A stretch of DNA of 64,000 nucleotides from Candidatus Dadabacteria bacterium (GTDB taxonomy: Bacteria; Desulfobacterota_D; UBA1144; Nemesobacterales; Nemesobacteraceae): NCBI GenBank assembly GCA_951812735.1, contig OX638332.1, positions 1,469,928-1,533,927 of the forward strand. Reading direction: 5' to 3'. The translations under genes were made by a program, and so were the position numbers. Positions 10,185 to 52,023 of the stretch are shown here, piece by piece (position 1 is the first letter of the stretch; each line of letters opens with the position of its first letter). A model generated the notes under the pieces. The model worked only from the letters and a program-made list of their open reading frames with translations. It was not told the DNA's origin and did not search any database.

Positions 10185-11237
10185 CTAAGACCGAACACCG
10201 TTCTGTCTGTCAATCGCACGCCTTCTGAACGATATGGTGAAAAACAGTGCGGACACTATCAATAGCAGATTAAACATGGTACCCCGAGGCGCATTGTCGC
10301 TTCCCGCCACAATTGCACAACCTCCGCCACTGACAGCTTTAGTCTCGCCGGCCGTATCACCCATGTCGTCCATGTCATCCATGTCGTCCATGTCATCCCC
10401 GTCGTCCATGTCATCCCCGTCACCAGCCATTCCGTCCCCGTCACATCCTGGCGGTGGGTTGCCCGTTTTCGGATAGATGCCGGAACCAAAGATAATACCC
10501 GGAGAAGGGGAGAGCGCCGCCGCTCCCAAGTACACAAATGGGTTTATAACGTAGCTAGTTTTCCAAGAGTCGCCAGGGGCCTTTCCAGGAATGGAATTCC
10601 CATTCGAATCGACTATTTCGTCATCCGGTACATCCGGATCATCCCAGCAATACTCAACAATGCCGTTGCTGCTGGGACTTCGTGCCTCGCCAATAATTAA
10701 CCCAGGGACATCCCGGCCGCCCTCGTCCTCGGCAACCAGCTCCACCCCCTCAATACTTTGATCAACTCCGCTAAAAAGCATCTCTCCTTGATCATCTATG
10801 ACGAAAAGATACACGGAACCCGACTTCCAATCTCCGTCTTCCCTGCCAAACACCTGATGAAAGGGGAGGTCAAAATTGCACGCTTCGTTTTCATCTATAT
10901 CCGCCCTAGTCAGTTGTACAGTAGAAAACAGCTTAATAAGTGGTTTTATCTCTTCTACCGTAAGAGTTGAAAGATCAGGAATTTGGTCTTGGAAAGGATC
11001 GAGTTTAGGAATTTTGCTAAAATCACAAGTCTCTTTTATAATCTTATTTATGTAATACTCGTCAACCGCTTCCTCTACGAATTGTTTAAGGTCCGCTTCG
11101 GTCTGTACCTCGCTTGCTGTTATGGCATGCACGGAAGCCGTAGTACCGGGAAAGACGCCCCCAAGCGCCAGCAGACATAAAAAAAGACCCGCAAGAGCCC
11201 CAGTCTTAAAGACCGTATTTCGCATCAAAATTCTCAT
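10185..11237 (-). CDS. secreted Cache-like (sCache_2-type) domain protein P1 with acidic DDM repeat and conserved C-terminal Cys-motif/TM/RRR anchor
   Basis: Signal peptide 'ALAGLFLCLLALGG'. Cache-like 'YLFVIDDQGEMLFSG' and 'VEYCWDDPDVPDD...SYVINPF...IIFGSGIYP'. C-terminus 'GGGCAIVAGS...MFNLLLIVSALFFTISFRRRA'. Confidence 0.6.
   Translation of the reverse strand: MRILMRNTVFKTGALAGLFLCLLALGGVFPGTTASVHAITASEVQTEADLKQFVEEAVDEYYINKIIKETCDFSKIPKLDPFQDQIPDLSTLTVEEIKPLIKLFSTVQLTRADIDENEACNFDLPFHQVFGREDGDWKSGSVYLFVIDDQGEMLFSGVDQSIEGVELVAEDEGGRDVPGLIIGEARSPSSNGIVEYCWDDPDVPDDEIVDSNGNSIPGKAPGDSWKTSYVINPFVYLGAAALSPSPGIIFGSGIYPKTGNPPPGCDGDGMAGDGDDMDDGDDMDDMDDMDDMGDTAGETKAVSGGGCAIVAGSDNAPRGTMFNLLLIVSALFFTISFRRRAIDRQNGVRS
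10362..10424. repeat. tandem 9-bp repeat (catgtc[ag]tc, about 7 units) inside P1, encoding D-D-M/G-D units
   Basis: Directly visible 'ccatgtcgtccatgtcatccatgtcgtccatgtcatccccgtcgtccatgtcatcc'. The protein reads 'DGDDMDDGDDMDDMDDMDDMGD'. Confidence 0.7.
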
Positions 11238-11519
11238 TATATCCTCCTTATTGATTCAACAAGATTAAACCCCAAAAACCCGACCTCTCGCCGGGTCATC
11301 GATCGGATTTATCATTCTTGTCTGTTCCGATAAAAATGAACACCGATTCCGGTGCTGGCCGGAACATACATTCCTATAATTAAAACAAAAAAATAAAAAG
11401 ACTGTCAAGCACTTTCAGGGGAAAATCGCGTATAAATCCCTTTGCGCCATGTCTATCATAATTTTGTCCGCAAGTTTCTCTGTAAAAAAGCTTCACAACT
11501 GTGGAGTCGAGGAGGCGGG

Positions 11520-12311
11520 CTACTTTCTGTAGGGCGAGAAATCAGGCGGTCTTTTCTCCACAAACGCATCGGTCCCCTCGGCGGCTTCGTCCGTGGTCTT
11601 GAAAAGATCGAGCGATGCCTTTCCCATGCTTGAGATTCCGAAAAGACCGTCGGTTTCGGAGTTAAAGGAGTATTTGGCAAGCTTAAGGGCGGTCGGGCTT
11701 TTCGAGAGCAGTTCCTCGCACCAGCGCTCTACTTCTGAGTCAAATTCCTCTGCGGGAACGACCCTGTTTACAAGTCCCATCTCAAGGGCTTCTTTGGCCG
11801 AGTACTGCCTGCAGAGATACCACATCTCTCTTGCTTTTCTCTCCCCGATTAGCCTTGAGAGATAAGCCGTTCCAAAACCCGGGTCAACGCTTCCGACCTT
11901 GGGTCCCACCTGCCCGAAGGTGGAATCCTCAGAGGCGATCGCAAGATCGCACATGAACTGCAGTATGTTCCCCCCGCCTATGGCGTAGCCCCTGACTGCC
12001 GCTATGACCGGCTTCGGTATGTTTCTTATAAGGTAGTGAAGATGAGAGACGTAATCCCCGACTCCGAGGAAGCCGTCCTCTCCGCCGGACCCCTTTTTTT
12101 TCTTCTTGAGGTCTCCTCCGCTGCAAAAAGCCTTCCCGCCCGCGCCCCGGAGAACCACAACGCCGACCCCGGCATCTCCCCACGCGTCGGTAAAGGCCGT
12201 GATCATCTCGCGGAGCGTCACGTCCCGAAAGGCGTTGCGCGTTTTGGGGCGGTTTATGGTTATAAAGGCCACCCCGCCCGTTTTTTCGTAGATTATGTCC
12301 TTGAAGTTCAT
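11520..12311 (-). CDS. menB: 1,4-dihydroxy-2-naphthoyl-CoA synthase-like crotonase (MenB family)
   Basis: 'FCSGGD...IRNIPKPVIAAVRGYAIGGGNILQFMCDLAIA' closely follows the MenB core. It contains an in-frame K5 run encoded by an A9 homopolymer. Confidence 0.7.
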   Translation of the reverse strand: MNFKDIIYEKTGGVAFITINRPKTRNAFRDVTLREMITAFTDAWGDAGVGVVVLRGAGGKAFCSGGDLKKKKKGSGGEDGFLGVGDYVSHLHYLIRNIPKPVIAAVRGYAIGGGNILQFMCDLAIASEDSTFGQVGPKVGSVDPGFGTAYLSRLIGERKAREMWYLCRQYSAKEALEMGLVNRVVPAEEFDSEVERWCEELLSKSPTALKLAKYSFNSETDGLFGISSMGKASLDLFKTTDEAAEGTDAFVEKRPPDFSPYRK

Positions 12312-12314
12312 CGG

Positions 12315-13790
12315 CTACCCTTGGTACCACTTCCCGGTGCTTTCCCCGGTAAAGATGTTAACGCACTTGGTCTCAAGGTAGTTGTCTATTCCTTCGGCTC
12401 CGAGTTCCTTTCCGATTCCGCTCTGTTTAAAGCCCCCGTATGGGGTTTCGGGGATTATCCCCCCGTAGGTGTTAACCCAGAGATATCCGGCCTCAACGGC
12501 CTTTGCGACTCGGAGTGCCCGGTTTATGTCCTGTGTCCAGATTCCTCCGGCAAGTCCGTACTCAACGTCGTTTGCCATCGTGATTGCCTCTTCCTCGGTC
12601 TTAAACGGCATGACGCAGACCACCGGTCCGAAAACCTCCTCGCGCGCGAGGGTAGAGCCGGGAGGGACGTCCTCCAAAACTGTGGGCGCTATGTAGTAGC
12701 CCTTCTCGAATCCCTCGGGGCGGTCTCCGCCCGCGATCACTCGCGCTCCTTCTGAGACGCCTTTTTCTATGTAGTTCATTACGCTCTCGTAGTGCTCTTT
12801 TGAGATCACGGTCCCGAATTCGGTTTCGGGGTCTTCGGGGTCCCCGATTCTTATCCTCGAGATCCTGTCTAGGTAAGCCGATAAAAACTCGTCGTATATC
12901 TCTTCGTGGAGCATGAGCCTGGTCACGGCGGTGCAGTTCTCCCCCTGATTAAAGAAACCTCCACGAAGACATGCCTCGACGGCTCCCTCGACGTTTGCGT
13001 CGGGAAAAATCATGCAAGGGGCCTTGCCGCCTAGCTCAAGCGATACCCTTTTTATCTCTCCCGCCGCCGTCCTCATGACGTTTTTTCCGACTTCCGTGGA
13101 ACCAGTAAACGCTATCTTGGCCACATCGGGGTGTTCTGTGAGCGCCTGACCGGCTACTGATCCTTCGCCGGGCACGACGTTGAGCACCCCGTCTGGAAGT
13201 CCTGCCTCTGAGCAGAGTTTCGCCACCTCGAAGATCCCGCATGAGGTAAGTTCAGCGGGTTTTATGACCACGGTGCATCCGGCAACGAGTGCGGGGGCTA
13301 TTTTCCAGAAGGAAAGAAGAAGGGGGAAATTCCACGGGATTATGTGGGCCGCTACGCCCACGGGTTCTTTTATGGTCAGGGATATCTGGTTTTCGTTTAC
13401 CTGCAGGGTTTCTCCGTTAAGACGGGTGTGAGCTCCTGAGTAATACTCAAGCGTTCTCACGGAACCGCCTATCTCAACCTCAGCGCTCTCGCGTATGGGC
13501 TTTCCCGTCTCGCGGGTGTTTACAAGGGCAATCTTATCTCTGTTGTCAGATAGTACCTGGGCGATCCGAAGAAGGTACTTGGCGCGCTCGGATGCAGGGA
13601 GACGAGACCACCCGGGAAAAGCGCGCTCGGCGGCCCGAACTGCTGCGTCGATGTCTTCTGACCCTCCCTGGGCGACCTCCGCCAGGGGTTTTTCCGTTGC
13701 GGGGTTTTCCCTTACGGAGTAAGCGCCGCTTTGCGGCTCCCTTTCCCCGCCGTCAATGAAAAGATCGCACTTTATTTCCGTACTGGCCAT
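12315..13790 (-). CDS. NAD(P)-dependent aldehyde dehydrogenase
   Basis: ALDH signatures 'FTGSTEVGKNVM', 'ELGGKAPCMIF' and the catalytic Cys context 'FFNQGENCTAVTRL'. Confidence 0.85.
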   Translation of the reverse strand: MASTEIKCDLFIDGGEREPQSGAYSVRENPATEKPLAEVAQGGSEDIDAAVRAAERAFPGWSRLPASERAKYLLRIAQVLSDNRDKIALVNTRETGKPIRESAEVEIGGSVRTLEYYSGAHTRLNGETLQVNENQISLTIKEPVGVAAHIIPWNFPLLLSFWKIAPALVAGCTVVIKPAELTSCGIFEVAKLCSEAGLPDGVLNVVPGEGSVAGQALTEHPDVAKIAFTGSTEVGKNVMRTAAGEIKRVSLELGGKAPCMIFPDANVEGAVEACLRGGFFNQGENCTAVTRLMLHEEIYDEFLSAYLDRISRIRIGDPEDPETEFGTVISKEHYESVMNYIEKGVSEGARVIAGGDRPEGFEKGYYIAPTVLEDVPPGSTLAREEVFGPVVCVMPFKTEEEAITMANDVEYGLAGGIWTQDINRALRVAKAVEAGYLWVNTYGGIIPETPYGGFKQSGIGKELGAEGIDNYLETKCVNIFTGESTGKWYQG

Positions 13791-13895
13791 AACTTGAAAA
13801 TTATAACAGACAGTTCCTTATACGTATCCGCCTAGGCACAACTCGGCATTTTGCTGCCTTGTTTCGGAGTCAGTAATAAGGTGCGTTCAAATGCC

Positions 13896-13929
13896 GAGAA
13901 AAACAAGGGCAGTTTCAAGACTGCCCTTG
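13896..13929 (-). terminator. rho-independent terminator of paralog P2
   Basis: 9-bp stem 'caagggcag/ctgcccttg'. The minus-strand transcript ends with a UUUUUCUC tract. Confidence 0.6.
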
Positions 13930-13986
13930 TTAGATCAACTGTTACCGCCAGTTTCAGAAAACTGCCGATATTGCAAGAAAGTCTCT

Positions 13987-15348
13987 CTACGCACGTCTTC
14001 TCAGGAAAACGACCGAGAGTAGGACGGACGCTACCAGAAACAGGTTAAGCAATGCGCCTTGAGACGTATTGCTGGCTCCGGCGATGGTGCACGCTCCGTC
14101 GTTGCCGTCTGCCGGCGTGCTTTCAGGATAAACCCCGGAACCGAAAATGAAGAGCCATTCACCGGGGTGTGGCACAATCTGCGCGTTTAAGTCCGCTACC
14201 TCGATGTAGCTTGTCTTGGGTGACATGCCGGGAACCATCCTATCTTCGAACCACATTGCAGTTGGTGTATCTCCCGGTTTTAACCAGTGATATTCGACTG
14301 TGGCGGAAGCTCCGACTTCTACGGCCCCTAATTTTTCGTGAAACAGTCTCGCTATGTTCCGTTCACCTTCCAACAGATTATCATTCAAGTCAAGGTTATA
14401 GCCATTTAGGTCAAAGCTGGCTCCGTTCACAAGCACTGTGGACTGTGCTGGGTCTGCGTCCATTACGAAAGCATATATGCTTCCATACTTGAAATCCTCG
14501 CTTCCGAAACAAAAAAGCCGCTCTTGAATTCTTAAGGTTATGGGGCCCTGAACAAGGGCTGCCAGCGTCTGCCTGTCGTCTAAATTACTAATTGGGTCTA
14601 GAGATGGATTTGCGGCTAGCGCTTTGACAGCTTCTTCCTGTGATATCTTTGCTACGTCTTTTTGAACCGCGTCTATAACACTTTGTACGTAAGCTTGAAG
14701 CTTCGTGTGGTCCTCCTCAACTTGCGCAGCGGTAGTGGCAAGCTCGAGACCTTCACAGCCAGGAGGAACAAAGGCGGAGTCGTCTACCGCATGACGAAGA
14801 CCTACTATGTTTGTTACAGGGCTACCAGCAACGGTTTCCTCCACTTTGGCTGCACAGGCCACCCTTTCATTGTTCGGGCCGTAATCCACGCACACCGGAG
14901 GAGCCCCAATCGCAAGATCTTCATGGTCGAGTAAAGCTTTTAAAGTAGCTGCAACCGCCGAATCCATGGCATCCGGATTAAACCTGTATCCTATTCTTAC
15001 GGGATATCCCGCGTGATTCGTTACAATATTCCTGTCCGTTATGCCTATTGCGTAGATATCACCGTGCTTATAGTCTCCGCCATCTTGCCTGATGTTTCTG
15101 GCGAATATTGTCAGTTCTCTGATCAGCGCGGCGCGGTCATCCATGTTGTCGGTTCTAACATGTTCATAGTAATCCACAATACGATTAACAAAATCCGTCA
15201 TCTTCTGTTCATTCCCAGGATCGTCCGCTACATCTTGCGCGGTTATCGTACTGTCTCCGTGAGTGCCGGACGCATCAATGGCGAATGAAAAAACAAGCCC
15301 CAGCGCGAAAAACAGGCTCAACAGTATTCCGTGTGTTTTGAATTTCAT
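13987..15348 (-). CDS. secreted tandem Cache-like domain protein P2 with C-terminal Cys-motif/TM/RRR anchor
   Basis: Signal peptide 'ILLSLFFALGLVFSFAIDA'. 'IYAFVMDADPAQSTVLVNGASFDLNGYNLD' and 'VEYHWLKPGD...KTSYIEVADL...LFIFGSGVYPE' match the sCache_2 pattern. C-terminus 'GNDGACTIAGAS...LLNLFLVASVLLSVVFLRRRA'. Confidence 0.6.
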   Translation of the reverse strand: MKFKTHGILLSLFFALGLVFSFAIDASGTHGDSTITAQDVADDPGNEQKMTDFVNRIVDYYEHVRTDNMDDRAALIRELTIFARNIRQDGGDYKHGDIYAIGITDRNIVTNHAGYPVRIGYRFNPDAMDSAVAATLKALLDHEDLAIGAPPVCVDYGPNNERVACAAKVEETVAGSPVTNIVGLRHAVDDSAFVPPGCEGLELATTAAQVEEDHTKLQAYVQSVIDAVQKDVAKISQEEAVKALAANPSLDPISNLDDRQTLAALVQGPITLRIQERLFCFGSEDFKYGSIYAFVMDADPAQSTVLVNGASFDLNGYNLDLNDNLLEGERNIARLFHEKLGAVEVGASATVEYHWLKPGDTPTAMWFEDRMVPGMSPKTSYIEVADLNAQIVPHPGEWLFIFGSGVYPESTPADGNDGACTIAGASNTSQGALLNLFLVASVLLSVVFLRRRA

Positions 15349-15939
15349 TCTGATTACTCCTCACTGTGATTTTTGTTGTACCAATATTATAGTGCAAAAT
15401 TAATACTTTTCCGCATTAAATCATAATTCAAGGTAGTTATCCCTATAACTAGTCACTTGCTCCATCATATTATTAAGGAATTATTCTTTTAGGTTGACAG
15501 ATTACCGATTGAGCATCGCAGGCTGTGAAAGCTCCATACATCCTAGGGAGGATTGTATTCTATTGCTTAACTGCTTGTCAAGTAAAGGTTAAGTTGTTTC
15601 AGGGCAATACGGAACATCCAATCCTAGCAAGTCCTCCTCTCCATTCGGGTGAATGGAACTCTCAAACTTCCCCAACATGAATTCAGCCGATGAATTGCCC
15701 GCTTCCACGGGAAGCAAAGATGTCGCTGGGACGGGATGGCTCTGGGAATTTAAAGCACTACACTGCGGGTTCAAGGAGGCGATACGGGGTTTGTAGGGCT
15801 TGTAAACTTAAATCTGTACCCCTTCCTCAATCATTAGATCCAAAAACACTTGAATATTATACAAAAAACACTAGGGAGAGTGCCGTCCTCCAGCAACCTC
15901 CCTCCCTCATCTTACTTCTGGCTGGTTATAGGGGCAGTT

Positions 15940-16095
15940 ACCAAAAAAATCTATGTGGTAAATCCCTCAGGATTCTTGGAAGAGTGTCAGGATTTTTACT
16001 GCGGGCGGGTCCTGCCTCTCGTGTTTGATTTCCGGAGTCAACAAGAGGGTCGCGCTTTGCTGTTTTCCAGATCAGGCAGACAGCGCTTTTGTTGA
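15940..16095 (+). pseudogene. remnant of nucleoside 2-deoxyribosyltransferase-like gene (N-terminal fragment only; ATG replaced by ACC)
   Basis: 'KKIYVVNPSGFLEECQDFYCGRVLPLV' is paralogous to the N-terminus of the 17814..18275 gene. The reading frame terminates after about 50 aa and the remaining space is too short for a full gene. Confidence 0.35.
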
Positions 16096-16143
16096 TTCTT
16101 TTACTTTCTTGCTTTGAAGAGGATTAAGGTGTTTCGTAATGTC

Positions 16144-16204
16144 GAAAAAAAACTGGTTATCAAGGGCGACATCAACTCGTTTGTGAAAACCGCCCTTGAT
16201 AACC
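16144..16204 (-). terminator. rho-independent terminator of paralog P3
   Basis: 14-bp stem 'ggttatcaagggcg...cgcccttgataacc', followed on the minus strand by 'aguuuuuuuuc'. Confidence 0.6.
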
Positions 16205-16250
16205 AGCTATAAGTTCCGGAAAAAGCTTCCGGAAAAATTTTTGTTCCCAC

Positions 16251-17657
16251 CTATACGCGTCTTCTCAGAAAAACAACCGAGAACAGAACGGACATTGTCA
16301 GGAACAGGTTAAGCAACGTGCTCTGAGGCATATGTCCCGTCCCCGCGATTGCGCATCCGTCACCACCATCTCCTGTTGTCATCTCCGGCATCATCTCATC
16401 CTCAGGATAAGTTCCGGAACCAAAGATGTAGAGAAAATCAGGAAACATGCTATATCTAGGGTCCAGTTTCAAGACCTCGGTTATGTTCGCAACCTCAATG
16501 TAGCTTGTCTTAGGCGAACTGCCGGGAACCGATCCCATTTCAAACCAGCCGGGAATGCCATCGTCCGGATCATCGGGGTCGTCCCAGCGGTAGCTGACGG
16601 TAGCGGATTGTCCAGCTTGATAGGTTCCACTTCCGCCTGTCAATTCGTCGCGAAACAGGCTCACTATACTATCGTCAGTCCTTCCCAATTCATCGTCATT
16701 CACTTGAAGGTCAAGGCCGTTCAGGTCGAAGTTGTTTCCGTTCATAAGTACGGTGCCGGCCATATCCGTACTCATGATGAAAGCGTATATGTTCTTATGC
16801 TTGAAGTCCCCGCTTGCAAAACAAGCGATTGTGTCGAAAACTCTTTCGAATATTTTTGTTTGAAATTCGCCTGCCGCAGCTAACCCATCTGGATCTTGCG
16901 GATTAGTAAGTAGCACAAAAGACCGAGCCAAGAGACTAGCATTATCTGGATCATTAAATGCAGCATCAGTTGAATCTACCAGTAGCTGTTGAGCAGCCCC
17001 GATAATACCTTTTACGTAATCTTTAAGCTTATCGTGGTCGTTATAAACTTGCTCAGCGGTAGTATCAAGCATGAAATTGTTGCAGGCATCGGGAAGAGCA
17101 AAAGCAGCATCGTCTTCCGCGTGATGAAGGCCTGCTATGACTGTTATAATTCCGGAAAGGCTCCTTACTTTTGTCGCGCAGGCTACATTGTCCTGACCGT
17201 CATAATTTTCTTCACAATGTGCCATGTCGACATCTGAACCGTCGATTAAAGCTTGTATGGTACTCGCAATAGGTGTCCCGGGATCCGATTTAAGCTGGTG
17301 ACCGAGTAACGATCGGGAATATATAGCGTGATTCGTTACATATCCCCTTGAGTTTAAGGCCATTGAGTACATGTTGTTTTGGGTGTTTTTATAGGGCCCT
17401 TCTTCCCTGAGCCGCCTTCCATATATTGTAATTTCCCTGTTCTGCGCATCCGGGGCGCTATCGGCAATAACCTGATCGTAGTAATCTATTATATGACCAA
17501 GAAAGGCTTCCACTTCCGCTTTACTTGTAGGGTCGACGTCTCCCGCGGCTGTGCCTGTACCGTCCCCGTGACTGGCGGACGCCTCAATGCCGAACGAAAA
17601 AACAAGCCCGAGCGCAAAAAACAGGCTCAAAACCATTCCGTATGTTCTAAGTCTCAT
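16251..17657 (-). CDS. secreted tandem Cache-like domain protein P3 with C-terminal Cys-motif/TM/RRR anchor
   Basis: Signal peptide nearly identical to P2 ('MVLSLFFALGLVFSFGIEA'). 'NIYAFIMSTDMAGTVLMNGNNFDLNGLDLQ' and 'VSYRWDDPDDPDD...KTSYIEVANI...LYIFGSGTYPE'. C-terminus 'GDGGDGCAIAGTG...LLNLFLTMSVLFSVVFLRRRV'. Confidence 0.6.
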   Translation of the reverse strand: MRLRTYGMVLSLFFALGLVFSFGIEASASHGDGTGTAAGDVDPTSKAEVEAFLGHIIDYYDQVIADSAPDAQNREITIYGRRLREEGPYKNTQNNMYSMALNSRGYVTNHAIYSRSLLGHQLKSDPGTPIASTIQALIDGSDVDMAHCEENYDGQDNVACATKVRSLSGIITVIAGLHHAEDDAAFALPDACNNFMLDTTAEQVYNDHDKLKDYVKGIIGAAQQLLVDSTDAAFNDPDNASLLARSFVLLTNPQDPDGLAAAGEFQTKIFERVFDTIACFASGDFKHKNIYAFIMSTDMAGTVLMNGNNFDLNGLDLQVNDDELGRTDDSIVSLFRDELTGGSGTYQAGQSATVSYRWDDPDDPDDGIPGWFEMGSVPGSSPKTSYIEVANITEVLKLDPRYSMFPDFLYIFGSGTYPEDEMMPEMTTGDGGDGCAIAGTGHMPQSTLLNLFLTMSVLFSVVFLRRRV

Positions 17658-41175: not shown

Positions 41176-42435
41176 TCAGTTTACGGGAACGTACCCGTTT
41201 TCATCAACGTGCTCCCTTACCTTGCCCAGAACGTAGGGATCTATCCACTGCTCGTCTATATATTCGGGATAGACGGGAAGTCTTTCCCTAAGCTCGTAAC
41301 CCAGTGCGCTTACCTCCCTCTCCATTCTCTCAACCTGCGGCCACGGGGCCTCGGGGTTAACGTAGTCTATTGTAAGGGGCGACACGCCGCCGAGATCATT
41401 TATGCCGGCTGTGAGGTAGAAGGTGAAGTTCCTGTTGTTAAGGTTAGGCGGTATCTGTATGTTCATCTCCCCTCCGAATATGAGCCTTGAGATGGCGACG
41501 GTCTTGAGCATCTCGAGAAAATCGGCGGGAGGATACTCCTCCATTCTTATTCCTTCCTTGGGGTTAAAGTTCTGAATTATTATCTCCTGCAGGTGACCGT
41601 GGCGGCGGGAGAGTTCCAAAAGGGCGTAGAGCGAGTCGATTCTTTCCTCAAAGGTTTCCCCTATTCCTACCAGTATGCCGCTTGTCCAGGGAATACTGAG
41701 GTCGCCCGCATACTCCATGGTCTCCATCCTGAGTTTCGGGACCTTGTCCGCGCAGCCGTGGTGGGCGTTTCCCCGCTTAAGCAGCCTCTCGCTTATGTTC
41801 TCAAGCATGAGGCCCATGCTTGGGTTGCTTTTTCTGAACTCAGAGAGTTCTTCCGGGGTCGAGAGCCCGAGGTTTGTGTGGGGAAAGATTCCGTGCTCAA
41901 GCCCGGTTTTTCCCATGTCGATCAGATACTCCGCTGTCGTTTGGTAACCGATTTCCCCGAGGGCGTCTCTGTATACCTGGTAGGCGAGTTCCGGCTTGTC
42001 ACCCGTAACGAAAAGAAGTTCCGTGCACCCGGCCTTCGCCCCTTTTTTCGCCATGTCGACGACCTCTTCGGGGGTCATGAACAGAGCTCCCTCTCCCGGC
42101 TCTATCTTGAACGTGCAGTATCCGCAGCGGTCTCTGCAGAGCTGGGTCAGGGGTACGAAAACGTTTTTGGAGTAAGTTATTGTTTTTCCCTTTGAACGGT
42201 TCCTGACAGCCGACGCTGCCAGAAGAAGAAAAGGAATTTCCCTGGGGAAAAGCTCGGTAAGGTAGAGGGCGTCTTCACGCGTGACGCTTTCTTCCTCGAT
42301 TGCTTTTGATATTACTTTCTCAAGTTTCGGGGAGGGGCGAAGCTCCGAGAAGTCTCTCGCGCTGAATGTTTCAAGCAGCATGGAGCTTTCGTTTTCGCCG
42401 AATGTTTTTTCCCAAGTCTCAGCTAAAAGGGTCAT
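41176..42435 (-). CDS. cofG: FO synthase subunit CofG (radical SAM); start set at internal Met 'MTLLAETWEK'
   Basis: 'CRDRCGYCTF' radical-SAM motif and CofG-like length from Met122 of the 540-aa ORF. The upstream 121 codons overlap the divergent P4 region and are rejected. Confidence 0.8.
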   Translation of the reverse strand: MTLLAETWEKTFGENESSMLLETFSARDFSELRPSPKLEKVISKAIEEESVTREDALYLTELFPREIPFLLLAASAVRNRSKGKTITYSKNVFVPLTQLCRDRCGYCTFKIEPGEGALFMTPEEVVDMAKKGAKAGCTELLFVTGDKPELAYQVYRDALGEIGYQTTAEYLIDMGKTGLEHGIFPHTNLGLSTPEELSEFRKSNPSMGLMLENISERLLKRGNAHHGCADKVPKLRMETMEYAGDLSIPWTSGILVGIGETFEERIDSLYALLELSRRHGHLQEIIIQNFNPKEGIRMEEYPPADFLEMLKTVAISRLIFGGEMNIQIPPNLNNRNFTFYLTAGINDLGGVSPLTIDYVNPEAPWPQVERMEREVSALGYELRERLPVYPEYIDEQWIDPYVLGKVREHVDENGYVPVN

Positions 42436-42677
42436 ATACAGAAACCACCCGTTCCTTTTTCCGCGCGGAAATAATTTTAACGCCACCAACCCCGCCTGTA
42501 AGTATCTTATACTGGGGGCGTTTTTGTCAAGGAATGTATGCAGGATTGGAGGAACCGCGTCCTTGTTCGAAAATGTGCAGAATAGGTGGTACCATTTCAC
42601 CTGAAATGACTCTGCTGAAGTTTTACAAACTGCCGGGTCCGTCCGTTCCGCTACGCCGGGACGATATTCGCGCACGG

Positions 42678-44417
42678 ATGTGCACCTGTCTCCTGCGCCT
42701 CTCCCGTAGTTCCGCCCAGGCCGCAACGGGTCTTCTTCTCCTTCTTGCCGTCGTACTCGGCGCGCAGCCGGAGCCGGCCCACGCGCAGACCACAGCAACT
42801 TACACGGTAACGTTTGAAGGCAACTGGAACACCGACAGCACGCCCGGCGGGGTTGTGGGCGGCGCGCATTTCACGACGCTAATCGGCGCCGTGCATAACA
42901 GCGATGTGAGCTTCTGGGCACCGGGCGGCACGGCCACCGCCGGCGTTGAGGGGGTGGCGGAACTTGGCGCTACGGGCACGTTCAGGTTGGAAATCACCGC
43001 CGCCGGGGCAAACGTAAAATCCACCGTCCAGGAGAGTGGGACCGGCGCCACGGGCACGAGCACGTTCGAAGTCGAATTCAGCCGTACCCATCCCCTACTT
43101 ACCCTCTTGTCCATGATCGGCCCCAGCCCGGACTGGTTCGTGGGTGTCTCCGGTCTGTCTATGCTTGATGGATCGGATGCCTGGCGATCCTCTCACACGG
43201 TAGACCTGTTTCCTTACGACGCCGGCACGGAGGACGGTGAAGAATTTTCGCTGAACAATACCGCAACCAGCCCCCGGGGAACCATCACCAGCCTCGGGGG
43301 ACAAGGGAAATTCTCCGACACGCGCATGGCGAGGCTGAGTTTCACGCTTAAGACACCTTTGCCACCCCCCCCCACGCCTCCGTCTCCCCCTGAAGAAGAG
43401 ATATGCGTCGTTTCCGAAGTGACCGATGACCGGAGCCTCAGCAGATTCGTTGAGTGCGCGGCGGAGAACATAGAGGACTCTGTCACCTTTGAGGAGACAC
43501 TTAGCCTCCTTGACGAGTTCAGAAATGACGAAGGAGACTGGAATGACGGTTCCACTTACTTTGTTCTTCTCACCAAAGGAGGTGGGGTGTACTTCCACGC
43601 CCACGCCCCCGACAGGGAAGCGGAAGACCGGAGATGGTCAGGGACTGTCTTCTGTGACGAGGAGGGAGGAGACGTGCTTAACCTGCAAGCGGGAGATGGA
43701 TGCGCCATAGAGGGCGGCGGCTACGCCCATTCGTTCTCCGCTTCCCATGTTCCCCTGACCCGCGCCGGGGACGAATTCGTCCTGCTGGGCGGTTTCGACG
43801 AAACTCCCGAGGGGGAACCTTTCACGGAGATGATTGACGGACCCTCAACGGAAGCCGGGAATGTGGATACCGAAGAAGATCTGATGAAATTCGTGGGAGA
43901 GGCGGTGAAAGCCCTCAGGAAAACCGTAGGGGATCCTCTGATTGACCCCGTGCAGCTGCGGGGAGTTCTGAGACAGGAGCCGTGGAGAGAGGGGGAAGTG
44001 TATGTTTACATCATGGATGAGACTGGAAGGGTGATATTCGACGGCGGGGACAGGAGCAAGGAGCAGAAGCTAACGGATGATTCCGGAAGGGAATACGTCG
44101 TGGGGGAGCTTATAGCGGAGGGTGAAGAAGAAGTGGGGCACGTGGAAGGCGATTTCTGGATTTACGCTGAAAAGGTAGAAGAGGACAGTCGAATATACAT
44201 CGTGGGTTCGGGGTACCAGCCCGAGCCGGGTGAAAGCGGCGACGGAGGCGGGGGCTGCGCTGTCGGAGGGAGCGGTAGCGACGGCACATTCGGCCTGTCT
44301 CTTATAGCGTTGGCGCTGCTTCTAATAGTCTTGCTTAAAGACACTCGGCGTCAGGCAAGACGTATTGAGTTGAGGCGGGGTGTTGTCGCTTGTAACCGCT
44401 TAAGAGAAACGGAATAG
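42678..44417 (+). CDS. secreted Spondin_N + Cache-like domain protein P4 with C-terminal Cys-motif/TM/basic anchor
   Basis: Signal peptide 'LLLLLAVVLGAQPEPAHA'. Spondin_N hallmarks 'AHFTTLIGAVHNSDVSFW' and 'GPSPDWFVGVSGL...YDAGTEDGEEF'. Pro-rich linker. Cache-like 'VYVYIMDETGRVIFDGG'. C-terminus 'GDGGGGCAVGGSG...LSLIALALLLIVLLKDTRRQARR'. Start assigned to Met105 of the ORF. Confidence 0.65.
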   Translation: MCTCLLRLSRSSAQAATGLLLLLAVVLGAQPEPAHAQTTATYTVTFEGNWNTDSTPGGVVGGAHFTTLIGAVHNSDVSFWAPGGTATAGVEGVAELGATGTFRLEITAAGANVKSTVQESGTGATGTSTFEVEFSRTHPLLTLLSMIGPSPDWFVGVSGLSMLDGSDAWRSSHTVDLFPYDAGTEDGEEFSLNNTATSPRGTITSLGGQGKFSDTRMARLSFTLKTPLPPPPTPPSPPEEEICVVSEVTDDRSLSRFVECAAENIEDSVTFEETLSLLDEFRNDEGDWNDGSTYFVLLTKGGGVYFHAHAPDREAEDRRWSGTVFCDEEGGDVLNLQAGDGCAIEGGGYAHSFSASHVPLTRAGDEFVLLGGFDETPEGEPFTEMIDGPSTEAGNVDTEEDLMKFVGEAVKALRKTVGDPLIDPVQLRGVLRQEPWREGEVYVYIMDETGRVIFDGGDRSKEQKLTDDSGREYVVGELIAEGEEEVGHVEGDFWIYAEKVEEDSRIYIVGSGYQPEPGESGDGGGGCAVGGSGSDGTFGLSLIALALLLIVLLKDTRRQARRIELRRGVVACNRLRETE

Positions 44418-48046: not shown

Positions 48047-48532
48047 TCAGATAGAGTTTCTCGTGCTCTCGACGATCTGCTCCACTCTCGGATACATGTA
48101 GATGTGCAGGATGATTCCTACGACCGAGAAAGGAATCGCGTCTTCGGGGTTTTTGCTTAGAAACGCAAGCACGAACCCGAGCAGCACCACGCTCTCGTTT
48201 ATTCCCCAGGGGACCACGTGCGGGAGCAGAAGACGATTTGAGAATTCCTCAAGCCTCTTTTCCGGTTTCTGGCCTTCTGTGGCGAGGAATTTCTTTCGAA
48301 GGGATTTTTCAGAAAGGGTAAACCTGTATATGAGAAGGGAAATTGCCCCAAGGGCCACCCCTCCAATCAGAAAAGCGGCTTTCACGTTTTCTGCGACACT
48401 TGGAGGCTCGGGCGATTTGAAGACGAAAACCACCGCCGTGTAGGCGAACATGGCGAGCAGCAAGGCGAGCCAGACTATTTTCAGGGCGCTTTGGTTCTTT
48501 GCTACGGATGAGGCCCTGTTTTTCCTGTCCAT
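48047..48532 (-). CDS. hypothetical integral membrane protein (about 4 TM)
   Basis: Hydrophobic segments 'IVWLALLLAMFAYTAVVFVF', 'FLIGGVALGAISLLIY' and 'VVLLGFVLAFL'. No recognisable family. Confidence 0.4.
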   Translation of the reverse strand: MDRKNRASSVAKNQSALKIVWLALLLAMFAYTAVVFVFKSPEPPSVAENVKAAFLIGGVALGAISLLIYRFTLSEKSLRKKFLATEGQKPEKRLEEFSNRLLLPHVVPWGINESVVLLGFVLAFLSKNPEDAIPFSVVGIILHIYMYPRVEQIVESTRNSI

Positions 48533-48788: not shown

Positions 48789-49041
48789 TTTGAGATTTCC
48801 TGGTACTGCGCGTACTCGGAAATTATCACGCAACCCTCCTCGAAAATCAAGTTTTCTGGTGCGTTGCGACTGTCTTTGGGCACTTCCTACATTCAAATAG
48901 ATCATTTGACCAAGAAAAAGAGGGGAGATAGAATAGGGTAGTAGGCATAAACGGACAGTTCTAGTGAGCAACATGGGAGGGAAGTTTAGGATTCTGTTAT
49001 TCGGGAGCATTGCAAGGACTTCCATCCTTACTTTCTGTGGA

Positions 49042-52023
49042 ATGAGATCAGCCGCGATGTCGTTTTTTATTGCTGGCGTGCTTGTCCTCGTTCTGGTCGG
49101 GTGTGACAGTGGCACCACACCTTCCGAATCTCCCGATCCTGACAATCCCGCGCACGGAAGCCCCGACCCCGATGTCCCACCGCCAATGGACACCGACCCC
49201 AGGGATCCCGCACTCCAACCCCTGATATACACAACACGACTGGGTCAGCCCATCGCCTTTAACATACAGGATGGTGACCCTCTGAATGCCCGGATTCTTA
49301 GGCAACCCCAGCAAGCAATGGTGATTTTGAATGCCGACGGCTCCGTTACCTACTCGCCCGCACCCGGGGCTGTTGGAGAAGACAGCTTCGAAATTGAAAT
49401 TAACGGAAGCCCGCGGGAGATCACCATTGACAACAACCTCGCTTATGAAGGCCAGATTGAGGGTGGAATGAACTCCTTCGGCAACGTTGAAGTGCTGTTG
49501 ACGGGGGATGGAGTATTGGAAACCGCGTCGCCGGACGCTTCCGGCGGGTTCAAGTTCTACGGGTTGCCGGACGGCGACTATGTTGTCAAGGTGCGGAAAG
49601 CGGGCTATACGTCATCGCTTGCCCGAGCGTTCAGCCTGGATATCGGGCAGTATGATCCTTTGCGTGATGGGATCGACCGATTTGTTCTGGAAGCGCTCGA
49701 TTCAGATACCTTTGTTTATCACTGGGAGGAAGATCAGAGTGCGGCTGGCTATGATTATGCGGCTCATGTGAACCAACCCGTAGTCGTGGAGTTTTTGGAT
49801 GAACAGGTTGAGGTGGTCGATGAAGTGTCAGCCAGCCAACTCCATCACGACTACAACATTTTGCTGGTTGATTCGGAAAGCGGTTCATGGACACAAGAGC
49901 ATGCCTATCGCCTTCTGGAAACCATGAAGTCCATCCCGCAGAAGCTGCGGGACCCCTATAAGGAACAGAACCTTCCCGCAAGCAAGTGGCTCATCACTTC
50001 CGACCACCTGGAGGACGACATCCGGATTACGCATCATGAAGAAGACTACAGGGCCGTTCTCATTTCCGAAGATGCCTTCGTCAATGCCAGCCCCCGGATC
50101 GCCAGAGTTGAAGGCAAGCGAGGCGTCTACTACTCACAACGTCTACACCACGCGCTGGTGCGCTTCGTTACGGATAACGGTAAGGATAAAGCTACGTACG
50201 AAGGGATTTTCCAGTCGCGTTACGGCGTCACGACCCGCATACCGGATTATACCCAGCTCACCAGCTCCACCACTGGCGAGTCCGCGTCGCGCTTTCAGGA
50301 ATTCCATCCCGAGGAAATAGTCCAATTGATCAATATGTTTGAGGAAATGCCCAAGGGGATGCACAAACTGCCTGAGCTGCGGTATCTGGTGCGGCGCTTG
50401 GACGGCACGCCGCACCCTATATATCCTGGTGCGCCTGCGGTGGCTTGGACCGATTATGGCTATATCGAATTCATGGAAAGCGGGTTCAGCGGGTTTTCCG
50501 CCGCCTATGTCCATCGCCTCATCATTCACGAAAAGGCACATTTCCTGTGGGCCCATCGGTTCGACGAGCAACTCAAGCAGGACTGGATCGAATTAGGCGG
50601 CTGGTACCACGACTCGGAAAGCTCCAGTCTCTGGTCGACGAGCAAACAGACGGAATTTGTCTCCGCCTACGCCCACTCAGAAAATCCAGAAGAGGACATG
50701 GCCGAGTCCATCGCCTACTTCATCGTGAATCCGGACAAACTGAAATCCCGAGCCATTGGCAAGTATGAGTTCATCCGCGACCGCATCATGCAAGGCAACA
50801 TCTACATCTCCACCATCCGAGAAGACCTGACCTTTGAGGTGTATAACCTGTATCCGGACTACGTCTTTCCGGGAAAGATCCGGCGAGTGGATATTGTGGT
50901 CGAGGGGGAGCCGGAGGACGACAAAACAATCCATGTGGAAATGGAGCTGCATGCTCTGGATGAGGAGTCGGAAGGAGCGGCAAAAGCCTATATGCGCATT
51001 TTCAGCGAGATCGGTACCTCTGTGGACCTGTACCTCTACCCCATGGATGTAAACGGCAACCAACTGACTCAAGGTACGGTGCTCAAAGGCAGATTTGCTC
51101 TCAGCAAGTACGTCAAAGCCGGTTACTGGCGGCCGAACCAGATTGTTATCACAGATGCGGTTGGCAACGAGCGGTTCGAAGGGGTAAATGACTTCGGGTG
51201 GAAACTCTACGTCGGCAACCTAGTGGAGGATCTCACCGCTCCTGGGTATGTGGGCAATACGGCGTCACTGAGCAAGAGCGTGACGAGCTTGGAAGGCCGG
51301 GAGGTTCAGTTGATTCATGCAACCTGGGAGGTGGATGAGGACACGGCAATGAGGGGGCAAGAACCCTGTTATGCCAGCCTGAATGATGATTTTCTGCAAA
51401 CCTACAGATATGATGCGTGGGGTTGGTATGACTCAGCCAGCAGGTTGTGTCAGGTGGACTTTATTATGCCCCACTATATGCCGAGTTCCACCTACAGGAT
51501 GAACTACATCAGCATGATCGACGAGGCACTGAATGTAAAGGGAGTTTACTTCACCCATCCTGGGAGTCTTCTGCATCCGGAGGAAAGTGTCGTGGATGAA
51601 ACGCCCCAGCAAATTGAACTGATAACCAACAATCCAGACCTTGAACCCCCTGAGTTGGATATCAACGACATCCAGATCAGTGCCAAGCCCACCTATCCGG
51701 AAGCGCCAAATGGCGAAACCCTGGTGACGATCACCTTTCGTGTCAGGGATAACATATCTGGTTACAAGATCGCAAGTGTGGAGCTACGCGATCCCCAAGG
51801 CATCGAGCATGAAGGCCGTCACTATCATGCAGGTCGCTCCCGACTATTCCCCGAAGGTGATCCCACCCATTGGACCACTCACACCCGAACGGTGCTTCTG
51901 CCACCGGGTTCTGCACCCGGTACTTGGGGACTGGCTGAGATGACGATTGAGGACCGGGCGGGCAATTTCCAGCGCTACGATTTCACCGAGATCATCTATT
52001 TCGATGTATTAAGCGGGGGTTGA
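49042..52023 (+). CDS. large lipoprotein with Ig/cadherin-like and carboxypeptidase-regulatory-like domains and an HExxH zinc-metallopeptidase-like core
   Basis: Lipobox 'LVLVLVGCDSG'. 'GSVTYSPAPGAVGEDSFEIEI' (Ig-like). 'SGGFKFYGLPDGDYVVKVRKAGY' (CarboxypepD_reg-like). 'YVHRLIIHEKAHFLWAHRFDE' (HExxH followed by an acidic residue). Codon usage looks ctg/ctc-rich relative to neighbours. Confidence 0.55.
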   Translation: MRSAAMSFFIAGVLVLVLVGCDSGTTPSESPDPDNPAHGSPDPDVPPPMDTDPRDPALQPLIYTTRLGQPIAFNIQDGDPLNARILRQPQQAMVILNADGSVTYSPAPGAVGEDSFEIEINGSPREITIDNNLAYEGQIEGGMNSFGNVEVLLTGDGVLETASPDASGGFKFYGLPDGDYVVKVRKAGYTSSLARAFSLDIGQYDPLRDGIDRFVLEALDSDTFVYHWEEDQSAAGYDYAAHVNQPVVVEFLDEQVEVVDEVSASQLHHDYNILLVDSESGSWTQEHAYRLLETMKSIPQKLRDPYKEQNLPASKWLITSDHLEDDIRITHHEEDYRAVLISEDAFVNASPRIARVEGKRGVYYSQRLHHALVRFVTDNGKDKATYEGIFQSRYGVTTRIPDYTQLTSSTTGESASRFQEFHPEEIVQLINMFEEMPKGMHKLPELRYLVRRLDGTPHPIYPGAPAVAWTDYGYIEFMESGFSGFSAAYVHRLIIHEKAHFLWAHRFDEQLKQDWIELGGWYHDSESSSLWSTSKQTEFVSAYAHSENPEEDMAESIAYFIVNPDKLKSRAIGKYEFIRDRIMQGNIYISTIREDLTFEVYNLYPDYVFPGKIRRVDIVVEGEPEDDKTIHVEMELHALDEESEGAAKAYMRIFSEIGTSVDLYLYPMDVNGNQLTQGTVLKGRFALSKYVKAGYWRPNQIVITDAVGNERFEGVNDFGWKLYVGNLVEDLTAPGYVGNTASLSKSVTSLEGREVQLIHATWEVDEDTAMRGQEPCYASLNDDFLQTYRYDAWGWYDSASRLCQVDFIMPHYMPSSTYRMNYISMIDEALNVKGVYFTHPGSLLHPEESVVDETPQQIELITNNPDLEPPELDINDIQISAKPTYPEAPNGETLVTITFRVRDNISGYKIASVELRDPQGIEHEGRHYHAGRSRLFPEGDPTHWTTHTRTVLLPPGSAPGTWGLAEMTIEDRAGNFQRYDFTEIIYFDVLSGG

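Follow-up and report, generated by a model that had tools for sequence, protein, structure and literature searches.

Domain organization of P4

The DNA analyzed here is a stretch of 64,000 nucleotides (hereafter, the window) of contig OX638332.1, whose source lineage we take to be Candidatus Dadabacteria, tagged 'Thermodesulfobacteriota' in some records. On its plus strand, between the housekeeping genes cofG and cofH (upstream and divergently oriented) and the acetyl-CoA synthetase gene acs (downstream), it harbors a gene, here called P4, whose frame is open from 42366 to the stop codon at 44415-44417 and whose product combines a signal-peptide-like region, a Spondin_N head, a proline-rich linker, two Cache-like modules and a cysteine-containing C-terminal tail (Table 1). 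A previous reading of this DNA, made from its letters alone (the sequence-only reading), had quoted several amino acid strings of this product, all of which are present in that frame. The acs protein of the window is identical to proteins from metagenome-assembled genomes (MAGs) named Candidatus Dadabacteria, and the loci related to P4 all come from Dadabacteria or 'Thermodesulfobacteriota' MAGs.

The assignment of the head to the Spondin_N family, already proposed by the sequence-only reading, is confirmed by the Pfam model PF06468, which matches P4 with 127.8 bits against a cutoff of 24 (E=7.6e-37, profile positions 1-172 of 194), and by the bacterial spondin model NF038123 of NCBIfam (95 bits against a cutoff of 40). 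In sequence searches of the Protein Data Bank (PDB), the head retrieved human mindin (3d34; E=4.5e-31, 39% identity over 173 positions) and F-spondin (3q13; E=1.6e-21, 34% identity over ~170 positions), and its likeness to the FS domains of these animal proteins consists of a clear sequence homology together with both hallmark motifs, PSPDW and DAGT(D/E). In the structure of F-spondin, a calcium ion is held by the aspartates of PSPDW and DAGTD, that of PSPDW being a bidentate ligand, and the last residue of DAGTD contributes only a main-chain carbonyl (PMC3117680); the Asp-to-Glu change of P4 (DAGTE) falls precisely at this carbonyl-only position. Since the ligand motifs are conserved, the P4 head probably binds Ca2+. 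According to PMC3117680, the FS domain is a variant C2 fold (the Ca2+/lipid-binding type) that possibly binds glycosaminoglycans, and the P4 head would likewise be an eight-stranded C2-like beta-sandwich.

Some differences from the animal proteins are also evident. The FS domain of F-spondin contains three disulfides, whereas that of P4 is devoid of cysteines; P4, a bacterial protein, has neither reelin-N nor thrombospondin repeats, and its head precedes Cache modules and a prokaryotic sorting tail. Moreover, the Glu in the LEV triplet by which mindin binds integrin aligns with E133 of P4, and a Thr occupies this position in many orthologs, so that an integrin-type binding is not implied.

Concerning the bacterial relatives of the head, a literature search gave no known function for any bacterial spondin domain-containing (NF038123) protein. 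P4 shares with some of them the secretion and the presence of a C-terminal sorting element (PF18962 in the case of P0101 and P0105), whereas the combination of Spondin_N, Cache and a Cys-type tail was found only in Dadabacteria/'Thermodesulfobacteriota' MAGs. Spondin_N domains 64-71% identical to that of P4 are present in MAGs assigned to Holophagales, Gemmatimonadetes and Acidobacteriia (P0094, P0096, P0097 and P0286), which have a similar locus-tag series. The searches with the Spondin_N protein return the closest hits only (MAGs of Dadabacteria, Holophagales, Gemmatimonadetes and Acidobacteriia), and within this scope there are hints that Spondin_N might have spread laterally among co-resident bacteria of different phyla.

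As regards the region that follows the linker, the sequence-only reading had recognized in it one Cache-like module; its Cache-type nature is upheld by transitive homology and by a structural model, but the modules are two and arranged in tandem, and their direct Pfam matches lie below the thresholds (16.1 versus 26.5 bits for dCache_2 and 15.8 versus 25 bits for sCache_2, PF17200). A direct PDB sequence search with this cassette gave nothing meaningful, and an exhaustive search of 1.84 billion representative proteins returned only 146 clusters at E<=1e-3. More distant relatives of the cassette (P0155, P0176, P0159, P0179 and P0190) score strongly on Cache models, P0155, with its seven Cache repeats, reaching 289.5 bits on sCache_2 and 301.7 bits on dCache_2. 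An AlphaFold model of residues 236-522, built from 50 sequences (pLDDT 79.6, pTM 0.76), displays the helix-helix-strands pattern twice and the PAS-like alpha/beta fold with an N-terminal helix known from solved Cache sensors. It is on the basis of this model and of the strong Cache scores of the distant relatives that we recognize two Cache modules in spite of the sub-threshold Pfam matches. The arrangement of a dCache domain, in which two modules share one long stalk helix and the structural match extends across both, is not observed in P4; its region corresponds to two tandem, divergent single-Cache modules and not to one dCache. The four conserved cysteines of the first module would fit the disulfides of an exported protein.

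The best structural matches of the cassette include the sCache_2 sensors of chemoreceptors, i.e., those of Adeh_3718 (4k08), of VP MCP (4exo/2qhk) and of TlpB (3ub6). P4 differs from them in its sub-threshold Pfam score, in having two tandem single modules, in the lack of any signaling output and in the location of the modules, which lie within a putative sorted surface protein and are dispensable at the locus; the usual context of Cache domains, that is, an extracytoplasmic sensor placed between two membrane helices and connected to a signaling output, is not found in P4. Cache domains occur overwhelmingly in chemoreceptors, histidine kinases and cyclases, and one might therefore imagine that P4 is itself a transmembrane sensor whose Cache signal is passed inward via the C-terminal helix. 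However, only 26 residues follow this helix, with no output domain among them, and most homologs end 8-12 residues past it; in place of a first membrane helix there is a predicted cleavable signal peptide, and distant relatives bear the same modules on autotransporter passengers. In our opinion, this architecture effectively refutes the sensor hypothesis.

The relatives just mentioned deserve some additional comments. In P0155 the seven Cache repeats are followed by an autotransporter beta-domain (PF03797), and P0168, the other protein scanned, shows Cache matches only; together with P0174, P0180 and P0192, these are large proteins of 1400-2100 aa, and the last three are probably also Cache-repeat autotransporters, judging from their multiple matched stretches and their aromatic C-terminal residue. 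P0176, P0200 and P0216 have C-termini resembling type IX secretion tails. It appears that Cache modules also serve, outside signaling, as surface or passenger domains. Literature searches for Cache domains in adhesins retrieved nothing specific.

The third part of P4 that deserves attention is its C-terminus, which the sequence-only reading had interpreted as a sorting-type anchor shared by a family of proteins. Our data agree with this, since a GGGGC signature, a helix and a basic cluster are all recognizable and the same kind of tail is present on three other genes of the window. The tail consists of GDGGGGC(527)AVGGSGSDG, the hydrophobic helix 537-553 and the basic KDTRRQARR, and across more than 100 related proteins it conforms to the consensus GGGGCAVGGSGSGG-AFGLFLAALALLLAV-SLKRH, with the Cys nearly invariant. 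When measured by the attributes of tripartite sorting signals given by Haft, it is close to the C-terminus and possesses a signature with three or more almost invariant residues (GGGC-A-x-G), a membrane helix and a basic cluster; the window contains four copies of it, and several loci and genomes two or more; and it is attached to unrelated ectodomains (Spondin_N alone, Spondin_N plus leucine-rich repeats (LRR), LRR, Calx-beta and FN3). An N-terminal signal peptide can be read from the sequence of P4 itself. Homologs elsewhere carry other anchors in its place, namely the autotransporter barrel PF03797 (P0155) or type IX-like C-termini (P0176, P0200 and P0216), and the Spondin_N relatives P0101 and P0105 carry PF18962.

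The tail also invites comparison with the MYXO-CTERM proteins (e.g., TraA). These are built of the same three parts (a Gly-rich signature whose Cys looks essential, a helix and a basic cluster), and they likewise show one type of tail on many unrelated secreted proteins per genome. On the other hand, MYXO-CTERM signatures often read GCGC, whereas the GGGGCAVGG of P4 contains just one Cys and precedes a Ser/Gly spacer; the MYXO-CTERM lineage is Myxococcota, to which that of P4 does not belong, and the scores of the P4 tail on the family model are 15-16 versus a cutoff of 20; finally, MYXO-CTERM has a cognate CPBP protease, and none was found in the Dadabacteria DNA examined. Nonetheless, MYXO-CTERM is the only sorting-signal model that matches the P4 tail at all. 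In experiments, the myxosortase MrtX, a member of the CPBP family, cleaved such tails, and the cleavage depended on the Cys (PMC11980579). By analogy, we describe the P4 tail as one that may work like a MYXO-CTERM-type signal, without filing it as a member of that family.

Table 1. Features of P4, of its upstream region and of its paralogs in the window. Residue numbers of P4 are counted from the ATG at 42678.
Feature	Position	Strand	Remarks
Conserved intergenic block cofG/P4	42440..42545		~95% identity to L018, against 72% for the P4 proteins
P4 coding sequence	42606..44417	+	likely ATG 42606, alternative 42573; stop 44415-44417
Signal-peptide-like region	42678..42785	+	aa 1-36; basic residues, hydrophobic run GLLLLLAVVLGA, predicted cleavage site between AHA and QT; read from sequence
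Spondin_N (FS) domain	42795..43295	+	aa 40-206; fold probably reaches ~aa 225 (nt 43352)
PSPDW motif	43122..43136	+	aa 149-153; invariant in 18 orthologs
DAGTE motif	43218..43232	+	aa 181-185; counterpart of FS DAGTD; invariant in 18 orthologs
Pro-rich linker PLPPPPTPPSPPEEE	43356..43400	+	aa 227-241; site of 675 extra nt (cadherin + FN3) in closest genome L005
Cache-like module 1	43404..43832	+	aa 243-385; four conserved Cys (243, 260, 326, 342)
Cache-like module 2	43869..44222	+	aa 398-515; sCache_2-type strings VYVYIMDETGRVIFDGG and IYIVGSGY; sub-threshold Pfam matches aa 418-489
Tripartite sorting-type tail	44229..44378	+	Gly-rich signature with Cys527 (nt 44256-44258), helix aa 537-553, basic cluster KDTRRQARRIELRR
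PA	10185..11237	-	350 aa, distant paralog; Cache module; tail GGGCAIVAG, helix, RRR
PB	13987..15348	-	453 aa, distant paralog; tail GACTIAG, helix, RRR
PC	16251..17657	-	468 aa; tail GDGCAIAG, helix, RRR

A fixed slot with a gene of variable architecture

The slot occupied by P4, with FAD-oxidase, cofH and cofG on one side of the gene and acs, rluB and tmk on the other, is found in 15 of the 19 first related loci as well as in L026 and L027, and its flanking proteins share 90-99% identity with their counterparts in the window. The gene in the center starts in every case with Spondin_N and ends with the Cys tail, and its length ranges from 351 to ~1440 aa. Indeed, the comparison of the domain architectures in related genomes revealed a constant head and tail and, in the middle, between zero and two Cache modules together with at most four cadherin and four FN3 domains. 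The simplest form (P0086) is composed of head and tail only, with no Cache; in L017 the first Cache module is inserted between the two, and in the window, L001 and L018 both Cache modules are present; to this arrangement a single cadherin and a single FN3 domain are added in L005, L008 and L010, two of each in L012 and L013, three of each in L016, and four of each in L003. With respect to the window (43358-43391), the gene of L005 has a 675-nt insertion (L005 9319-9994) which falls exactly at the Pro-rich linker and encodes a cadherin and FN3 pair; the stalk at this site, where other genomes have as many as four cadherin and four FN3 domains, is length-polymorphic. Short alleles with the architecture of P4 occur in several lineages (P0001-P0011, P0014-P0016). 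P4 is therefore to be regarded as a short variant in a series of positional orthologs organized as head, stalk, base and anchor, and not, as the sequence-only reading had suggested, as a Cache paralog to which a spondin domain has been fused in a single instance.

Cadherin and FN3 proteins are enriched in the genomes of sponge symbionts, and the longer alleles at the P4 locus carry both domains; Robbins et al. 2021, who count Dadabacteria among the sponge MAG lineages, proposed a role in attachment for cadherin/FN3 proteins (PMC8163846). In the literature searched, no paper was found on the spondin head, the Cache base, the Cys tail or the fixed hypervariable locus, and literature searches for spondin in sponge symbionts gave nothing specific.

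The positional ortholog is broken up into at least two open reading frames (ORFs) in certain assemblies, as in L020 (1159-2836), L004 (8743-11008) and L027 (6104-13701), and in L027 an insertion sequence (IS) element (rve integrase + HTH_Tnp_1) lies between it and acs. These split orthologs could represent either a real decay or frameshift errors of the assembly.

The series of architectures bears directly on the idea, also advanced by the sequence-only reading, that ligand capture is part of the core role of P4. In the version weighed here, the Cache modules would bind a small molecule (carboxylates, amines) and the spondin domain a lipid or a glycosaminoglycan, so that P4 would scavenge nutrients by concentrating substrates at the cell surface. 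The best structural matches of the cassette, i.e., the sCache_2 domains 4k08, 4exo and TlpB, are ligand-binding ones, the FS domain is a C2 variant with possible glycosaminoglycan binding (PMC3117680), and acs adjoins P4, all of which is in agreement with this idea. However, positional orthologs that lack one (L017) or both (P0086) Cache modules retain head and tail, which means that Cache binding cannot be the core function; there is no link to a transporter or an operon, acs and cofG being housekeeping neighbours in all genomes; and it is in the Cache modules that the alleles have diverged most. On the whole, we consider nutrient scavenging quite an unlikely role. The absence of the Cache modules from P0086 also makes it unlikely that they are the core of whatever P4 does; a structural, oligomerizing or accessory ligand-gated role is possible for them.

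The gene is also unusual in its divergence. Compared with L005, the nearest genome, the window shows a nucleotide identity of 94-100% in the flanks and of 73-86% across 42300-44400; the identity recovers sharply at the 3' end of the gene (44400) and declines more gradually at the 5' end. Synonymous divergence (dS) and the ratio between nonsynonymous and synonymous divergence (dN/dS) were estimated by the Nei-Gojobori method between the window and L005. The dS values of cofH, cofG, acs and FAD-oxidase are 0.11-0.145, with dN/dS of 0.015-0.18; those of the Spondin_N head and of the Cache cassette are 0.43 and 0.75, respectively, with dN/dS of 0.30 and 0.32. Three other genomes gave similar ratios, and over the four genomes dN/dS is 0.21-0.44 in both halves of the gene. 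Since dN/dS is below 1 and the reading frame is conserved, P4 can be considered functional and under purifying selection; compared with the surrounding DNA, its alleles are much older and their proteins change faster.

These data, in turn, speak about the possibility that P4 is a decaying remnant, that is, a deletion derivative of a longer adhesin drifting toward a pseudogene. The lack of the cadherin/FN3 stalk that many orthologs possess, as well as the split (L004, L020, L027) or IS-followed (L027) state of the gene, might be invoked in its favor. On the contrary, the reading frame of P4 is intact (579-603 codons), the dN/dS values reported above hold for both halves against four genomes, the Ca2+ motifs, the core residues of Cache and the tail signature are invariant, and the short alleles of identical architecture are shared by several lineages; decay appears, on this evidence, very improbable.

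In addition, contigs whose acs protein is 100% identical to that of the window carry P4 variants that are just 91% identical, and the alleles are mosaics which switch at domain boundaries. For instance, P0126 is 82% identical to P4 in the head and 97-100% identical in the linker, both Cache modules and the tail, whereas in P0002 the signal peptide, head and first Cache module are 95-100% identical, and identity drops to 81% over the second Cache module and to 74% over the tail. The mosaics indicate recombination between alleles or paralogs, and the pattern is like that of exposed, contested surface proteins.

Elsewhere in the window, at 48964-52023, lies a gene for a 1019-aa predicted lipoprotein (LVGC lipobox) with matches to Big_9, Cadherin_5 and CarboxypepD_reg; its identity to L005 falls to 82% at the 5' end, and on this ground it may be a second variable surface gene.

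Start codon, neighboring features and paralogs

The ATG at 42678, taken as the start by the sequence-only reading and giving a translation of 579 residues, is in frame, but it is AAA in the L018 ortholog; the in-frame ATGs at 42573 and 42606 are kept in both genomes, and the changes between them in the stretch 42606-42678 are mainly at third codon positions and mostly synonymous. Because the ATG at 42678 is not conserved whereas the upstream ATGs and the intervening codons are, the true start is probably 42606 or 42573. The orthologous gene calls are of 595-612 aa, many with a conserved N-terminal stretch LPGPSVPxRRDDIRAR. We considered whether the RRDDIRAR part of this stretch could be a Tat signal and rejected the idea by eye, in that it does not fit the S/T-R-R-x-F-L-K pattern. 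The A-x-A-Q-T site was found again in most orthologs of the alignment and, given the predicted cleavage between AHA and QT, the mature protein is the same for every candidate start.

The enzymes encoded by cofG and cofH make the F420 precursor. A mechanical ORF of 540 aa (41176-42798, minus strand) over-extends cofG: the 419 aa at which its orthologs are called put the cofG start near 42435, so that a genuine intergenic region remains ahead of P4. The block of this region that is strongly conserved in L018 contains, on the minus strand, a promoter-like site (TTGACA-N18-GATACT at 42530-42501) detected by a promoter scan. A match to Rfam was sought for the block 42440-42545 and none was obtained, and we rejected a known riboswitch or small RNA (sRNA) on this basis; the block is probably the cofG promoter or its 5' region/leader.

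As for the paralogs PA, PB and PC, they are clustered on the minus strand (10185-17657), interleaved with genes for an aldehyde dehydrogenase (12315-13790) and an enoyl-CoA hydratase (11520-12311). PB and PC are 42.5% identical, and PA is 27-31% identical to both; PA reaches 26.6 bits on sCache_2 (cutoff 25). Compared directly, P4 resembles PA, PB and PC only weakly (BLASTP E=3.5e-6, 1e-4 and 0.02, respectively); the alignment of the P4 cassette profile by hhalign gave a probability of 86% with PA and no significant result with PB and PC. The intermediates P0190 and P0159 match P4, PA, PB, PC and the Cache models, and PB reaches Cache-positive proteins solely via intermediates of this sort (e.g., P0190, P0206 and P0159). 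Since intermediates link all four to the Cache models, P4, PA, PB and PC constitute one distant superfamily of Cache-module, Cys-tailed proteins, within which two sub-types of tail can be distinguished, GGGGCAVGG...AFGLFLAAL...KRH in P4 versus GC(A/T)IAG...LLNLFL...RRR in PA/PB/PC. The paralog family of the sequence-only reading exists in this broader sense, with PB and PC belonging to it only through intermediates; the extension of one role to all its members is not justified by the data.

Proposed surface display, its alternatives and its significance

The signal peptide, the tripartite Cys tail, the surface anchors of the relatives and the hypervariable locus make a surface-sorted, adhesion-like role the best reading of P4, which is in agreement with the secreted and adhesion-like nature that had been attributed to it from the sequence. 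More precisely, we propose, with a probability of about 0.6, that P4 is an exported, surface-anchored protein of the head-stalk-anchor type, similar to an adhesin, in which the Cys tail directs processing and attachment and the spondin head is the distal working end. According to this model, the N-terminal signal peptide would export P4 across the inner membrane; the tail helix would be cleaved off and the protein attached via the Cys region and displayed on the cell surface, in a manner analogous to that of MYXO-CTERM and myxosortase. The Ca2+-binding FS beta-sandwich would then represent the constant, distal head, joined by the Pro-rich linker to the two Cache modules, which might act as a membrane-proximal base; what lies between head and tail would be a variable spacer or base. 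The most likely role would be contact of the head with an external partner at an adjustable distance from the cell, and the gene would be pressed to vary. The partner could be the matrix or the cells of a host (if the lineage lives in sponges, as seems plausible), other cells, or surfaces. In this regard, Dadabacteria are a regular part of sponge microbiomes (PMC8163846), and the isolate name of one related MAG, RHO1_bin_23, resembles a label of a sponge study.

Several points weigh against this proposal. The P4 tail scores 15.1 bits on the MYXO-CTERM model TIGR03901, and that of P0061 16.0 bits, both below the cutoff of 20, PA, PB and PC do not match it, and true MYXO-CTERM is curated by Haft as restricted to Myxococcota (preprint 10.1101/2023.06.07.544157). 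A CPBP (PF02517) protease was sought in the window and in ~0.5 Mb of related loci and was not found; the search relied on Pfam for all proteins of the 64-kb window with at least three predicted membrane helices, on motif and hydrophobicity scans in the loci L001-L019, and on precomputed Pfam lists for L025-L028. The absence of a CPBP gene from the sampled loci is, however, uninformative, because such systems operate with one enzyme and many substrates. The P4 tail runs 26 residues past the helix, which is unusually long, and the basic cluster is only K-R-H in many homologs. As to the structural models, only one of the five AlphaFold2 (AF2) models of the cassette was confident, and a full-length model built from 18 close orthologs reached only a pLDDT of 40.8. 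Besides, with dN/dS below 1 positive selection is not demonstrated, and the raised dS could derive from recombination with paralogs rather than from selection for diversity. Lastly, the association of the source genome with sponges is a conjecture drawn from MAG names and from the literature.

A small membrane protein encoded downstream of tmk was also considered during the search for a sorting enzyme. It has 161 aa in the window (48047-48532, minus strand), three to four predicted membrane helices and no Pfam match, and it is syntenic in nearly all related loci, with 80-97% identity. This recurring protein of 161-178 aa was rejected as a candidate, as it has no CPBP motifs and is simply syntenic.

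Some of the same observations might be explained by a periplasmic location, with P4 held in the inner membrane by an uncleaved tail whose basic end is cytoplasmic, and serving, for instance, to bind small molecules in the manner of Cache domains. A helix followed by a positive cluster gives this topology by default, the sorting enzyme was not found in the window and the related loci, the tail is under the MYXO-CTERM cutoff, and Cache domains normally face the periplasm. Nevertheless, a nearly invariant GGGC before the helix would have no role in a plain anchor; the tail is common to unrelated ectodomains, and relatives swap in outer-membrane or surface anchors; a stalk of up to four cadherin and four FN3 domains would not fit in the periplasm; and the strong local hypervariability fits an exposure to the outside. 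We regard the inner-membrane location as unlikely, and the surface-anchored, adhesin-like protein as the reading to be preferred.

As to what is new in these findings, each part of P4 is of a known kind. In the literature searched, three aspects appear to be undescribed, namely a spondin head joined with a Cache base and, outside Myxococcota, with a Cys sorting tail; Cache modules employed in surface proteins that are sorted and in the passengers of autotransporters; and a fixed, length-polymorphic, mosaic locus of this sort. A Cys tail of this type outside Myxococcota would extend the idea of myxosortase-type sorting to another phylum, and the presence of Cache modules in such surface proteins and passengers points to Cache domains outside signal transduction.

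A broader scenario can be put forward only tentatively, as we find it possible and somewhat doubtful: Dadabacteria might own an undescribed Cys-type sorting system, a cousin of MYXO-CTERM with a hypothetical enzyme, which would show interchangeable animal-matrix-like heads (spondin, cadherin/FN3, LRR and Calx-beta) on a conserved double-Cache base, and the cofG-acs slot would encode a spondin contact protein diversified in stalk length and in allele by recombination. If this were true, the slot would serve for host interaction or for immune/phage evasion and could be compared with the variable adhesin loci of pathogens, and the Cache modules would have been recruited from signaling to a structural or ligand-gated role in a surface protein.

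Most of the candidates for the way in which sponge symbionts recognize their host, attach to it or escape being eaten by it are generic "eukaryote-like" repeat proteins. With P4 a definite gene in a constant position becomes available, whose head is homologous to a domain of animal matrix and innate-immunity proteins (mindin/F-spondin) and which shows a natural series of stalk lengths and mosaic alleles at one slot; its unusual divergence, with the population-genetic signs described above, makes it a testable candidate for host contact.

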